From a virus (Monodnaviria > Loebvirae > Hofneiviricota > Faserviricetes > Tubulavirales > Inoviridae): a stretch of 11,798 bases of DNA. Positions within the stretch are counted from its first letter, which is position 1, and the number at the start of each line of letters is the position of its first letter. The translations under genes were made by a program, and so were the position numbers. Shown here piece after piece: positions 1,658 through 11,199 of the stretch. A model generated the notes under the pieces. That model did no database searches. It was not told where the DNA came from and saw nothing but the letters and a program-made list of their open reading frames with translations. Location of the stretch: positions 1-11,798 of IMG/VR virus record IMGVR_UViG_2667527584_000001. One strand, 5' to 3'.

Positions 1658-1690
1658 GGTTTATGTTGGTGCGCATAATGTACGACTCGT
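1658..1690 (+). other. Degenerate dif-like XerCD site, putative prophage attL: XerC arm GGTGCGCATAA, 11-nt spacer TGTACGACTCG, XerD-like arm TTATGTTGAAA
   Basis: The XerC arm is identical (11/11) to that of dif at 11172. The XerD-like arm matches TTATGTTAAAT at 9/11. It lies in direct orientation to the perfect dif about 9.5 kb away, with phage genes between. Confidence 0.6.
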
Positions 1691-1724
1691 TATGTTGAAA
1701 AGGCCGCTGCGAAAATCGAATCCC
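1691..1724 (-). terminator. Intrinsic terminator hairpin closing the prophage leftward operon; may also terminate hipA on the + strand
   Basis: Stem AGGCCGCTGCG (1691-1701) pairs with CGCAGCGGCCT (1714-1724). On the minus strand it is followed by a TTTTC run, on the plus strand by CTTT. It lies 44 nt downstream of the 88-aa ORF stop and directly abuts the XerD-like arm. Confidence 0.55.
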
Positions 1725-1767
1725 GCAGCGGCCTCTTTAGCATAACGTCATTGTGCGAACCAATTAT

Positions 1768-2034
1768 TTAGTCCTGCTGTCGACCAGGGGCATCATAACC
1801 TTGTCTTTTTCGCCATGCTTTTTCACCTCTCTCCCATATAACCGTGTCATTAGTTAGCTTTCTAAATTTCGCTAATACTTTTTTATCAATGGATAAATTT
1901 CCATTAGCATTCAAATATACGAAAGTATCGCCAAATAACTCTTTTATTTTATATACAACAGTTTCTTGATATAGCCAGTTTGTGTTTTCCAGCTCTGATT
2001 TCATCCATTGTGCAACATCATCTACAGTAGCCAT
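1768..2034 (-). CDS. Hypothetical 88-aa protein, distal gene of the prophage cargo operon; function unknown
   Basis: Intact ORF with an AAGGA Shine-Dalgarno about 7 nt upstream of the ATG. It starts 10 nt after the stop of the 264-aa gene and is followed by the terminator. No family recognised. Confidence 0.6.
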   Translation of the reverse strand: MATVDDVAQWMKSELENTNWLYQETVVYKIKELFGDTFVYLNANGNLSIDKKVLAKFRKLTNDTVIWERGEKAWRKRQGYDAPGRQQD

Positions 2035-2044
2035 ATATGTCCTT

Positions 2045-2839
2045 TTATTTTGGTGAGATTATTACTTTTACCGAAATTGAATTTGTACAACGCTCAAGGT
2101 CATTCTCCACACCAATTGGATTGGCAATTCTACCTTCAGGGTCATATACAAAACACACTAAAGTTTCGCAATCAGGATGCGTTTGATAATGAGCTATATC
2201 AACAATTAATTGCTCACCAACTTCTTTTTGCTTGAGATTTTTTCTCGTTTTCTTTAACTCGATAATGATTTTTTCATTCTTTAACAAGAAGTCAACTCGT
2301 GTTGAAGATCCTGCATAGCTTGGCGTATATTCTTCTGGTCTGACATCCTCGAAATGAATCTTCAAAAGAGCATGAAATAAATCCTGAACGTCATATTCGT
2401 CATTTATTTCAATGGTTTGTCTATTATCGTGTCGTTGCTGTAGCTGTCTTGCAACCTTATGAAATTGATGGCAAATTAGTTCAACAAGAGCTACGGGATC
2501 ATTTTTTGTCTCTATGAAATTCCCGTCAATTCCATATTCTTCAATCTCAGCAATCATAGACGTAAGAAGAGAATGTGCTTCATCTAAACCACTACAAAAT
2601 GCGTTATCGAAAACATAATCTGGTGTATCACCAACAAATGCCATTAAAGAGTATCGAATTGAGCCAAATTCTTTTTTGTGATCTGACTCTTCACCAAATA
2701 TTTTTGATATGGCGGTCTTAGTGTTTCTTTGCCATAAGTTAAAACTTGGGTTATTTCCTGTACTCCTTCGTTCATTTTGTATTGCTGGGATTTGCTCCCG
2801 TTGTCTTTTTAATATCTCGATAGCTTTTTCTGGCTTCAT
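2045..2839 (-). CDS. 264-aa protein with a C-terminal PD-(D/E)xK-like (restriction-endonuclease-fold) nuclease motif set; N-terminal domain of unknown function
   Basis: Intact ORF with a GAGGA Shine-Dalgarno 8 nt upstream. By my residue count the C-terminal region carries HFE164D165V, RVD183FLL, IIIE194LK196K and GEQ210L with typical spacing for this fold. The assignment is by motif inspection only. The gene is visibly AT-rich. Confidence 0.6.
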   Translation of the reverse strand: MKPEKAIEILKRQREQIPAIQNERRSTGNNPSFNLWQRNTKTAISKIFGEESDHKKEFGSIRYSLMAFVGDTPDYVFDNAFCSGLDEAHSLLTSMIAEIEEYGIDGNFIETKNDPVALVELICHQFHKVARQLQQRHDNRQTIEINDEYDVQDLFHALLKIHFEDVRPEEYTPSYAGSSTRVDFLLKNEKIIIELKKTRKNLKQKEVGEQLIVDIAHYQTHPDCETLVCFVYDPEGRIANPIGVENDLERCTNSISVKVIISPK

Positions 2840-2906
2840 TATCTTTCCTCAAGACTAAAAAATAATCACCTCTGAACTTCACCGCTGATATATGGAGCAA
2901 AATTGC

Positions 2907-9056: not shown

Positions 9057-10300
9057 TGAAAAAGATTTTACTCGCATTAACGCTACTATTTTCTTCATGT
9101 GCTTTCGCAGGGTCAGAGCTTGAATTAAATAAAGTCAAGCTACCGGAGGCTATTTCTCTTATTTACAGTGAGGTGCTTAAAGTCCCGTATATGCTAGATC
9201 CACAGCTTGTTAATGATGAACGAATGATTACATTCAGGTTAACACCTGATATTGATGAACGGGAATTTGTAACCCGTTATCTTGGCAATATGAACATTCG
9301 AATATGGACGAAAAAGGGTGTTGATTTTATCGCGCCCTATACGCCGAAAGAGCCGGTTAAGCCACGTTATACATGGACTTATACGCCTCAGTACCGCTCT
9401 GTTGCCTACCTGTCTGATATTCTTGGCGGCTACGTTTCAGGCTCCTTCAATAACAGTGGAGCCGTGATTTCTGACGATTCGCTAAAAGGTTCATCAGGGG
9501 CAAGCAACTACATCAATCGAACCGGTGATATTCTGGTTTATTATGGTACGAAAGAGGATATCGCCATCCTGAAAACACTGGTCACTTCGCTGGATACGAT
9601 GAGTGATGAAGTGGTTGTTTCTGGTTATGTTTTTGAGGTTCAGACCTCGCAGTCTGACGGCTCCGGCATTCTTTTAGCGGCTAAAATTCTGTCTGATAAA
9701 TTCAATATTTCAGTTGGTGCTGCCGGACTGGATAATTTTATCAATATTCGAACCGGCTCCATTGATGCCATTTTCAATCTGCTGAAAACCGACAGTCGTT
9801 TTACTGTTGTCAGTGCGCCACGACTGCGGGTAAAAAATAATGCCTCAGCGTCTTTTTCAGTCGGCTCTGATGTGCCAGTACTGGGCAGTGTTACGGTGAA
9901 TAACAATACGACAACGCAATCCGTTGAATATCGTTCCAGCGGTGTTTTGTTTAACGTGACGCCATCAATCAAAAGTCGGACAATGGATCTCAAGATTCAG
10001 CAGCAGCTTTCCAACTTTGTGACCACTGAAACCGGCGTCAATAACTCGCCAACCCTTATCAAGCGTGATGTAACAACCGAAGTCAGCCTTGCAGATGGTG
10101 ATATTATTTTACTTGGTGGCCTTGCTGAACAGAAAGACAGTAAGGCCAGTTCCGGCTGGAGCTTCTTCGGTTCCCGTACCAGTGAAAGCAACAAGACTGA
10201 TATTATGGTGATGCTTCAGGTCAGAAAGGTTGACCGGAGCAGGGCGACGCCCCGCAGCGCCGCGAGGAGCGGTGAACTGTTCCGGGACAACCTGAACTGA
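9056..10300 (+). CDS. Phage secretin (gpIV-like outer-membrane export channel)
   Basis: Signal peptide MKKILLALTLLFSSCAFA, and a C-terminal secretin-like region (DGDIILLGGLAEQ...TDIMVMLQVRKV). The start overlaps the gI stop (TAATG). The last about 22 codons are GC-rich and look like an atypical tail. Confidence 0.8.
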   Translation: MKKILLALTLLFSSCAFAGSELELNKVKLPEAISLIYSEVLKVPYMLDPQLVNDERMITFRLTPDIDEREFVTRYLGNMNIRIWTKKGVDFIAPYTPKEPVKPRYTWTYTPQYRSVAYLSDILGGYVSGSFNNSGAVISDDSLKGSSGASNYINRTGDILVYYGTKEDIAILKTLVTSLDTMSDEVVVSGYVFEVQTSQSDGSGILLAAKILSDKFNISVGAAGLDNFINIRTGSIDAIFNLLKTDSRFTVVSAPRLRVKNNASASFSVGSDVPVLGSVTVNNNTTTQSVEYRSSGVLFNVTPSIKSRTMDLKIQQQLSNFVTTETGVNNSPTLIKRDVTTEVSLADGDIILLGGLAEQKDSKASSGWSFFGSRTSESNKTDIMVMLQVRKVDRSRATPRSAARSGELFRDNLN

Positions 10301-10388
10301 TTGTATGGATTTTTATTATGGCGTTAACTTTTATGGGGTATGAACAGTACGACATCTTCTAGGTATTCAGTTACTTAGAGGATTTATT

Positions 10389-10637
10389 ATGTCTGTAAAA
10401 AATAAGGCGCGTGACCGACTTCCCGGTGGCCGCCTTAAGTCTTATCGTCGTGTAGGTTCACATTTTGCCAGTTGTGCCAGATGGTTTGATAAATCGCCGT
10501 CCTGGTATCGCAATATGATGATGACCAGGCCTGAGCGCCGTGAAGTCAGAAGGCTTCTCAATCAGGTAATGCGTGGTCATGATGCTGACGGCATTGCTTT
10601 TCCGGTCAGTCATCGTCCGTTTGTTTATTGGTGGTGA
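10389..10637 (+). CDS. Hypothetical basic 82-aa protein ending in YWW
   Basis: Intact ORF on the phage operon strand. It is visibly more GC-rich than the neighbouring phage genes. No family recognised. Confidence 0.45.
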   Translation: MSVKNKARDRLPGGRLKSYRRVGSHFASCARWFDKSPSWYRNMMMTRPERREVRRLLNQVMRGHDADGIAFPVSHRPFVYWW

Positions 10638-10821
10638 ATTTCGTACGCACGAAATTTCACGCATAAACACCAGACAAAAAATCGTTAACTGTCTGTTTTG
10701 AAAGATAACGCCGGTCAGTGACAAAACTTGTTTTGTTGCTGTCCGGGGTTGGCCAAGCCGTACAGTTTCCATTTTCAGCGTTATGGCTGATTCGGCGCGG
10801 CAGCATTCATCGGGGCTTATC

Positions 10822-11031
10822 ATGGAAAAATTCATGACACATCAGGAGCTGAAAGTGATGCTTCTCAAAGATCCAGCATTCCGGGCTGCTTATGAAGCTG
10901 AGAGCCAGAACCCGCAATCCGGTTACCAGATTATCCGGCATCATGGTGATGGCACTGAAGAAGTGGTGTTTGATTCTCGTGTATCAGGTACAGATTTACC
11001 AACTAACTGGATGAACAGGCCTGATTGGTGA
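10822..11031 (+). CDS. Hypothetical small protein (about 69 aa from ATG 10822; the track ORF begins at 10783)
   Basis: ORF on the operon strand. ATG 10822 has a G-rich Shine-Dalgarno-like sequence upstream, whereas 10783 has none. A further in-frame ATG lies at 10834. Confidence 0.4.
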   Translation: MEKFMTHQELKVMLLKDPAFRAAYEAESQNPQSGYQIIRHHGDGTEEVVFDSRVSGTDLPTNWMNRPDW

Positions 11032-11171
11032 GGTCAGGCCGTTCACTTACTGCTGACAGACATTTGATTCTGATTCGTTTGGAGAAACGGATAACGTAGA
11101 ATCACCATTGATAGTAGCCAGTTGACGGCCAGTGTCAACGATTCCCGCCAGATTCTGCCATCCTTACCATT

Positions 11172-11199
11172 GGTGCGCATAATGTATATTATGTTAAAT
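11172..11199 (+). other. dif: Chromosomal dif site (XerC arm GGTGCGCATAA, central TGTATA, XerD arm TTATGTTAAAT); putative prophage attR
   Basis: Exact 28-bp match to the canonical E. coli dif sequence as I recall it. In E. coli K-12, dif lies just downstream of hipA, which fits the element having inserted there. Confidence 0.9.

Follow-up and report, generated by a model that had tools for sequence, protein, structure and literature searches.

The locus examined here raises the question of what occupies the dif site of its host, and of how it arrived there with no integrase gene of its own. The window, by which we mean the whole analysed stretch of 11,798 nucleotides (IMG/VR record IMGVR_UViG_2667527584_000001, Inoviridae), starts with the hipBA genes and carries a filamentous prophage between hipA and a perfect copy of dif. 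The element is very probably a single-copy inovirus of the CUS-1/YpfΦ family, 9,504 nt in length, which was integrated at dif by XerC and XerD, the recombinases of its host (XerCD), via the CTX-type route. This reading would explain a strain-specific insertion of 9.5 kb at the replication terminus, which is present in approximately 2% of complete E. coli genomes.

Insertion at dif

A perfect 28-bp dif (GGTGCGCATAATGTATATTATGTTAAAT) was found at 11172-11199 on the plus strand, as a single occurrence in the window, and a dif match with three or fewer mismatches was obtained in none of 200 shuffles of the window. The exact XerC arm (GGTGCGCATAA) was present in two places in direct orientation, at 1668-1678 and 11172-11182. 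The left copy belongs to a degenerate dif-like site (1668-1700), in which an 11-nt spacer (TGTACGACTCG, 1679-1689) leads to a XerD-like arm (TTATGTTGAAA, 1690-1700) with two mismatches to the XerD arm of dif. Both members of the pair postulated in an earlier interpretation made from the DNA letters alone (hereinafter referred to as the sequence-only reading), a perfect dif and a degenerate site in direct orientation, were thereby located. That reading had the element span 1658-11199; its right end was retained, whereas its left coordinate was 10 nt too far to the left, the site starting at 1668. The inovirus genome between the two sites was 9,504 nt long (1683-11186).

In prophage-free K-12, the sequence downstream of hipA matched the window up to GGTGCGCATAATGTA and then ran on as an uninterrupted dif, the element being absent there as the sequence-only reading had anticipated. 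An empty-site construct of 600 nt was produced by in-silico removal of 1683-11186 (1383-1682 joined to 11187-11486) and searched against 5,426 complete E. coli genomes. It was present with 100% identity, as one uninterrupted stretch, in UPEC132, GN02350, MS1494 and others, and at least 80% of it was covered in 231 genomes. The segment 1683-11186 is an insertion at dif, and its junctions fall precisely within the dif core. Among the open reading frames (ORFs) scanned with Pfam, PADLOC and PHROGs, none matched an integrase, transposase or recombinase family, in agreement with the earlier claim that an integrase gene is lacking.

The left junction (attL, 1668..1700, plus strand) consists of the host XerC arm followed by the phage spacer TGTACGACTCG and the phage XerD-like arm TTATGTTGAAA, with the crossover within TGTA at 1679-1682, and would not be usable as a double-stranded Xer site. 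The right junction (attR, 11172..11199, plus strand), a perfect 28-bp match, is the working dif. Under the model, its XerC arm (11172-11182) would be derived from the phage and the bases from 11187 on from the host, and the working dif of carrier strains would be partly phage DNA. The phage-type flank upstream of attR (ccatccttaccatt) was identical at tandem junctions.

To the left of the element are two host genes on the plus strand, encoding the antitoxin HipB (1..267; Pfam HTH_3, 2.8e-15; annotated as hipB in D8 and UTI89) and the toxin kinase HipA (267..1589; Pfam HipA_C, 3.7e-52, and Couple_hipA, 2.2e-27; RefSeq annotation). The hipA stop codon ends at 1589, which leaves a gap of 78 nt to the left site, and the same 78 nt were found in prophage-free K-12. 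The close spacing reported earlier (about 70 bp) held. In all E. coli examined, including K-12, hipA is followed by dif at this distance of 78 bp, so that the proximity has no special meaning. The hipBA link that headed the sequence-only reading is incidental, and no functional link to hipBA persistence is implied.

Relationship to CUS-1 and YpfΦ

Judged by sequence comparison, the element is a single intact copy of the already described CUS-1/YpfΦ phage with a swapped accessory module. The core (3349-11186; 7,838 nt) was 99.5% identical to YpfΦ of Y. pestis NCTC5923, with 38 differences and a single, intergenic indel, and was likewise 99.5% identical to the prophage of UTI89 (O18:K1:H7), with 39 differences. 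Across the 12 core ORFs, a total of 7 amino-acid changes was counted relative to the Y. pestis copy. This level of core identity supports the kinship with CUS-1 and Ypf phages that had been proposed earlier. YpfΦ has been shown experimentally to be infectious and to produce filamentous virions of single-stranded DNA (ssDNA); it enters the chromosome at dif and restores dif at its 3' end (PMC4266046). CUS-1 is the E. coli K1 counterpart of YpfΦ, with 99% identity over 7.1 kb (PMC4266046, PMC2731167), and is cited as first described in 2002 (Gonzalez et al., J Bacteriol 184:6050, via PMC4266046). The comparison with CUS-1 was made here with the UTI89 genome and with reviews.

In a collection of phage records, megablast of 1600-11300 gave no match, and sensitive blastn gave only four weak partial matches (65-69% identity) to unrelated inoviruses. 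CUS-1 and YpfΦ are not deposited as phage records in that collection, and the comparison was therefore carried out via bacterial genomes. The ORFs adjacent to attL (1764-2906) matched neither UTI89 nor Y. pestis. This does not exclude membership of the lineage, because a difference between CUS-1 and YpfΦ in this attL-adjacent segment has been described before (PMC4266046). The phage lineage and the mechanism class are thus both already known, and the new details leave the specialist picture unchanged; what is new is a compact attachment region (attP) of three sites with natural junctions, the solitary state, and a cargo variant absent from the two published genomes.

Of the 5,426 complete E. 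coli genomes, 99 contained the core (3900-11150) at a coverage of at least 80%, and 120 contained at least some of it. E. coli GN02323 contained three tandem copies of the same variant, spaced 9,504 nt, in which the inter-copy junctions were exactly the rebuilt circle-junction sequence and the last copy ended in a perfect dif followed by the right flank of the window. Tandem arrays were accordingly present in GN02323 and in Y. pestis, compared with one copy in the window. In addition, two internally deleted tandem copies of a 97%-identical phage, with a perfect dif at the end, were observed in Klebsiella spallanzanii SB6411 (L007, 6169-14158), and this pair is a case of decay within an array.

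The solitary state might also be that of a defective, domesticated remnant which can no longer produce phage and owes its retention solely to the cargo or the rebuilt dif. The window has one copy and no second origin downstream of it, phage production by CTX-type prophages requires copies in tandem, and carrier genomes had two core-matching places at the median, all of which would suit a remnant. Nevertheless, we consider this explanation unlikely: all 12 core ORFs were intact, with the same lengths as in the Y. pestis and UTI89 copies and no internal stops, and were nearly identical to those of the infectious YpfΦ. Moreover, the occurrence of the same variant as a triple tandem array elsewhere implies recent activity, and 38 substitutions over 7.8 kb with only 7 amino-acid changes speak against decay.

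Attachment region and route of integration

Next to attL, two features overlooked in the sequence-only reading were identified. A GC-rich hairpin with an 11-bp stem and a 12-nt loop (1701..1734, without strand) was recovered by inverted-repeat search (arms 1688-1711 and 1724-1747) and by folding, and an inverted dif-like site was located at 1735..1761 on the minus strand (reverse complement GGTTCGCACAA-TGACG-TTATGCTAAAG). This third, inverted site and the hairpin are predicted to define a CTX-type single-strand attP, in which, once the phage DNA is single-stranded, the inverted site would pair with both arms (XerC and XerD) of the first site and the hairpin would form the tip of the attP(+) fold. 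When the circle junction was rebuilt (right end to 11186, left end from 1683), the ssDNA was modelled as a forked hairpin in which XerC-type arms were paired together, XerD-type arms likewise, and the 11-nt and 5-nt centres were mostly unpaired. The folding energy was -31.2 kcal/mol, compared with -13.6 +/- 2.7 for shuffles (z = -6.5).

The same inverted site was found in 27 IMG/VR viral contigs. Among 14 distinct attP/attL sequences, the proposed helices were 96% paired (counted over alignment cells), compared with 31-48% when partners were slid by 1-3 columns, and four helix pairs had changes on both sides. Three compensatory pairs were found in the hairpin stem of Brenneria-type relatives. 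The spacer beside the XerC arm started with TGT in 14 of the 14 aligned variants and was variable after it. The attL of Y. pestis keeps a host-specific arm (GGTGCACATAA) and the inter-copy junction there has the phage arm GGTGCGCATAA, and the exchange was therefore placed at the border between XerC arm and spacer. Further, TTTT lies directly after the hairpin 1701-1734 on the minus strand, so that the hairpin is probably also the terminator of the leftward operon.

In the CTX route, two inverted sites with centres of 12 bp and 5-7 bp are folded together in the (+) single strand, the exchange is made by XerC only, and replication completes the integration; integration is irreversible because neither site works as a duplex, and rolling-circle replication that runs across tandem copies gives rise to phage (PMC4246890). 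Catalysis by XerC on single-stranded DNA is known for CTXφ (PMC4246890) and has been proposed for YpfΦ (PMC4266046), and reviews place CUS-1 and YpfΦ among the Xer-dependent, CTX-type elements (PMC4266046, PMC4246890). Applied to the window, the packaged (+) single strand would be the coding strand, which is the plus strand of the window, and the first site would pair with the inverted site 34 nt downstream to give a forked hairpin of approximately 94 nt, in which a single XerC arm and a single XerD arm flank a bulged centre. At the arm/spacer border, XerC would exchange one strand pair with dif, aided by the shared TGT(A), and replication would then turn this junction into a prophage. The outcome would be a dead attL, in which the XerC arm comes from the host and the spacer and XerD-like arm from the phage, and a fully functional dif rebuilt at attR.

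From left to right, the window has the XerC arm of the host, the spacer and XerD-like arm of the phage, the hairpin and the inverted site; then come the phage genome, the phage-derived XerC arm and, from the host, the centre and XerD arm. This order is that expected with the plus (coding) strand as the integrating strand. As a duplex, neither phage site has a workable centre of 6-8 bp, and Xer-mediated excision would therefore not be expected; new phage DNA would come from rolling-circle replication over tandem copies. The solitary copy is probably a stable, largely silent lysogen giving little or no phage, which we hold with less confidence than the integration route. The use of host XerCD in the manner of CTXφ, CUS-1 and Ypf-type phages, as put forward in the sequence-only reading, is supported by the empty sites, the core identity and the reviews, and we infer catalysis itself by analogy.

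Several points weigh against the CTX-type route for this element. The phage silence of a solitary copy would depend on the analogy with CTXφ. For this element and, to our knowledge, for CUS-1 in E. coli, Xer dependence is a prediction. The compensatory changes are confined to two related sequences (L009, L036), the rest of attP being nearly invariant, and may represent few independent events. In addition, incoming YpfΦ is described as often inserting between resident copies, which is not predicted by the CTX model, and as remaining for the most part outside the chromosome in laboratory strains of E. coli (Chouikha et al., via PMC4266046).

An integration of the VGJ type, in which the double-stranded replicative form would recombine with dif via the single site 1668-1700, reversibly and with phage arising by excision, is very unlikely because the arms of that site are 11 nt apart, compared with a VGJ attP of 29 bp and the 6-bp centre of dif. 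The site does have a perfect XerC arm and a XerD-like arm with only two mismatches, and an XerC-first exchange is common to both types (PMC4246890), but a 6-nt spacer would make the XerD arm ACTCGTTATGT, unlike TTATGTTAAAT. Single-site use is also at odds with the retention of the inverted partner site and hairpin in the 27 viral contigs, with compensatory changes, and with the reviews, in which CUS-1 and YpfΦ are assigned to the CTX type. There is practically no probability that the segment belongs to the core chromosome, which would have refuted the sequence-only reading, or that generic homologous recombination or transposition, and not a site-specific event at dif, brought it in: the one point in favour is the absence of a recombinase gene, whereas K-12 lacks the segment, empty sites with 100% identity exist, the junctions are exactly inside the dif core, the core is present in only 99-120 of the 5,426 E. 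coli genomes, Y. pestis has the same element at its own dif, where the XerC arm of attL is host-specific, and GC falls to 35-41% in parts of the element compared with approximately 47% in hipBA.

The flanks of dif gave several further observations. Window 1647-1667 (host, left of dif) resembled, in register, 11151-11171 (phage, left of the XerC arm). In-register identity left of dif was 13-14/23 in E. coli and 15/23, or 19/22 with one gap, in Y. pestis (L006, approximately 970-992), values of 13-15/23 corresponding to p of about 1e-3 to 1e-4. In a 200-nt local alignment left of dif, the score for E. coli was equalled or exceeded by 70 of 500 shuffles, which is not significant, and that for Y. 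pestis by 2 of 500, which is borderline. The likeness could reflect fossil right ends of earlier elements, capture of the host flank by the phage, or chance. Because phage DNA would take the place of the working dif's XerC arm and left flank at each integration, the 20-50 nt left of dif in Enterobacterales may be a fossil of earlier such elements, which we regard as a weaker possibility.

To the right of dif, strains differ from the first base on (K-12, catgtctgag...; window, tgcctgtgaagg...). Window 11200-11798 contains, on the minus strand, the terminal part of a gene for an alpha/beta hydrolase or acetylxylan esterase-like protein. Compared with the window, UTI89 carries 96 additional bp, inserted at 11350/11351, and in LF82 and several other strains the 600-nt empty-site span contains 96 bp more. 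A separate element of 3.4 kb was found at dif, upstream of a CUS-1-like phage and with the left junction AGTGCGCATAATGTGTTGAACATGTTAAAT, in a contig labelled as a metagenome-assembled genome of Candidatus Nanosynbacter (L010, 4810-8257; JARKOR010000214.1). The contig is E. coli-like, its hipBA being 96% identical to that of the window, and the label is probably a binning error. The 3.4-kb element has four minus-strand ORFs that gave no Pfam match. At the right end, it is homologous to the E. coli hipA-dif spacer over the final 48 nt of the latter (1620-1667), in the allele of the window, and at least 80% of the element was found in approximately 50 complete E. coli genomes.

Gene content, cargo slot and known systems

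The complete inovirus gene set announced in the sequence-only reading was recovered, with gII, gV, major coat, gIII-like, gVI, gI/Zot and gIV matched by Pfam and PHROGs. Coat, minor coat and secretin genes were arranged in Ff order, and the genes typical of Inoviridae (Zot, gII and gV) were all present. On the plus strand, the gII-type rolling-circle replication initiator (4047..5099; Pfam Phage_CRI, 1.2e-73, and G2P_X_C, 3.6e-34) was 100% identical in Y. pestis as a protein, and relatives of Rep were also found in Klebsiella spallanzanii, Brenneria alni, Phytobacter and Photorhabdus. It was followed by a gV-type ssDNA-binding protein (5111..5428; Pfam Putative_G5P, 1.2e-52), the small virion/membrane protein orf83 (5431..5682; phrog_3679), the major coat protein (5717..5950; phrog_2186, virion structural protein, 4e-29; Pfam Phage_Coat_B, 0.0016, below the curated cut-off) and a second small virion/membrane protein, orf40 (5962..6084); orf83, the major coat and orf40 were all identical to the Y. 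pestis copies.

Downstream, a gIII-like minor coat/adsorption protein of 520 aa (6165..7727; phrog_3942, 2.8e-250; RefSeq start 6165) had 3 amino-acid differences from YpfΦ. It was assigned by position to puvA of CUS-1, described as a receptor-binding virion protein (PMC4266046). Genes for a gVI-like protein (7740..8027; Pfam DUF2523, 1e-20), the gI/Zot assembly ATPase (8031..9056; Pfam Zot, 2.2e-26) and the gIV secretin (9056..10300; Pfam Secretin, 1.3e-24) followed. Two small right-end ORFs, both intact, at 10389..10637 (no amino-acid difference from the Y. pestis copy) and 10834..11031 (one difference; phrog_6642), correspond by position to YPO2280a and YPO2281 (PMC4266046).

A leftward block, divergent from the plus-strand genes, comprised the repressor, a 140-aa protein and two cargo genes (1768-2839). 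The helix-turn-helix repressor (3429..3875, minus strand; Pfam HTH_3, 1.6e-09, and Phage_CI_repr, 4.4e-4; phrog_3557, transcriptional regulator) occupies the position of RstR in CTX and was identical to the Y. pestis copy; YPO2273 has been described as RstR-like (PMC4266046). The 140-aa protein beside it (2907..3329, minus strand; phrog_4174) contains four hydrophobic stretches that appear membrane-spanning by eye; it is common to UTI89 but not YpfΦ and was found in 13 of 23 related loci. An Rfam scan of the whole window at gathering thresholds gave no match, and a scan for consensus promoters and terminators gave counts no higher than in shuffles, from which no regulatory conclusion was drawn.

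The first cargo gene (1768..2034, minus strand) encodes a DUF6953 protein of 88 aa (Pfam DUF6953, 1.8e-28; phrog_10782), which is absent from UTI89 and YpfΦ. The second (2045..2839, minus strand) encodes a nuclease-like protein of 264 aa (Pfam REase_DpnII-MboI, 6.9e-59, scoring 198 bits where the curated cut-off is 27). Its N-terminal domain is helical, and its C-terminal half corresponds to a DpnII/MboI-type PD-(D/E)XK nuclease domain. The protein matched PADLOC Aga_Helical-REase (1.3e-34), and its N-terminal 107 residues matched the candidate PDC-S35 (3.6e-11). A total of 3,617 homologues was obtained at E<=0.001. In 18 homologues from several phyla, 52-85% identical, D183 and K196 were invariant and E194 nearly so, the D...E-x-K motif being conserved. 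The PDC-S35 profile also matched the TIR-carrying cargo of relatives, over the other half of that cargo, which suggests a shared N-terminal domain with exchangeable effectors. It is a reasonable guess that the 264-aa protein is a candidate defence or exclusion effector.

Homologues were surrounded by transposases or toxin-antitoxin genes, or lay in the interior of prophages. A conserved two-gene system of DUF6953 and nuclease was considered and found unsupported, since the nuclease gene stood alone, without DUF6953, in three contexts (Magnetospirillum, Riemerella and Citrobacter). The same DUF6953 and 264-aa pair, with the same spacing, was present in a further viral contig (L039, IMGVR_UViG_3300029219_000161) whose attL has another XerC arm (AGTGCGCATAA) and another host flank; this exact cargo variant has therefore also lysogenised a host other than E. 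coli.

The version of 1700-3400 seen in the window was found in only 24 complete E. coli genomes. Other E. coli variants carried a 369-aa hypothetical protein or proteins of the STM4504/CBY_0614 family, of the zinc-binding ECs_2282 family or containing DUF2971. Across the 23 related loci, at least 12 different gene sets lay between the inverted site and the membrane-protein/repressor genes, and the slot contents of relatives included CAP12/Pycsar-type TIR, Fic/Doc and DUF7014 proteins. From these comparisons, the left-end module (1762-2906) is a hypervariable, swappable cargo slot. More tentatively, the slot could be an enterobacterial defence/exclusion hotspot spread by Xer-dependent phage, with the 264-aa protein acting as a single-gene abortive-infection/exclusion effector, possibly together with DUF6953; we regard this as possible but doubtful. 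The literature yielded nothing useful on PDC-S35 or on integrative mobile elements exploiting Xer (IMEX) and defence in E. coli. This prophage is of a textbook kind, Xer-dependent integration of filamentous phages is already well established, and the cargo slot alone merits experiment: small and well delimited, with nuclease-like, TIR-like and Fic/Doc contents, it could be screened for new defence or fitness functions.

Matches to the left-end hairpin and inverted site (window 1700-1763), with 90-94% identity, were also obtained on E. coli plasmids, at approximately 477 places. In the case of the ColV plasmid pAPEC-O78-ColV (NZ_CP010316.1, 24116-24177; L005, 3001-3062), the match is without the XerC arm and adjoins an IS200 fragment. 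It is followed by an STM4504/CBY_0614-family gene, which is also a cargo variant in CUS-1-type prophages, and the plasmid copy looks like a captured relic of the phage left end with its cargo.

Among known systems, CUS-1 as represented by UTI89 is closest. The insertion point, attL, the attP hairpin, the inverted site, the gene order and all core protein lengths are shared, and window 2907-11350 aligns at 99.3% identity with the UTI89 prophage and the flank to its right. Similarity to UTI89 ends at 2907 and the window differs from it only in 1764-2906, where UTI89 has one 369-aa hypothetical protein in place of the DUF6953 and 264-aa nuclease-like proteins. YpfΦ (CUS-2) shares a 101-nt attP region (window 1666-1766) that is 100% identical at its tandem junction, as well as identical Rep, repressor, gV, coat, gVI and secretin proteins, integration at dif and a dif rebuilt at the right end. 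In contrast, 1767-3348 differs throughout, with YPO2271/2272 replacing the cargo and the 140-aa membrane protein; YpfΦ is 8.7 kb long, compared with 9.5 kb for the element in the window, and usually occurs in Y. pestis as 2-4 tandem copies, compared with the single copy here.

CTXφ of Vibrio cholerae resembles the element in lacking an integrase, in having two inverted dif-like sites (centres of 12 bp and 5-7 bp, against 11 nt and 5 nt here) and in a repressor transcribed divergently from rep. A crossover on the XerC side, with a live dif at attR and an attL that would be dead, is also common to both, and a single-strand hairpin would be the substrate in either case, here as a computational prediction. 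On the other hand, no sequence relationship was detectable in DNA searches, the sites of CTXφ are approximately 90 bp apart, compared with 34 nt in the more compact attP here, and its ctxAB cargo lies at the attR end, whereas here the cargo lies at the attL end beside attP and the repressor. CTXφ uses a host secretin, whereas the phage in the window encodes its own.

For the cargo slot, the nearest parallel is in Vibrionaceae, in which a variable, defence-enriched locus has been reported beside the regulator gene of dif-integrated filamentous prophages (PMC11630473, ISME J 2024). Both slots are variable loci near a prophage border with a transcriptional regulator alongside and defence-like genes; they differ in that the hosts here are Enterobacterales, the phage belongs to another lineage, and the function of the cargo is a predicted one.

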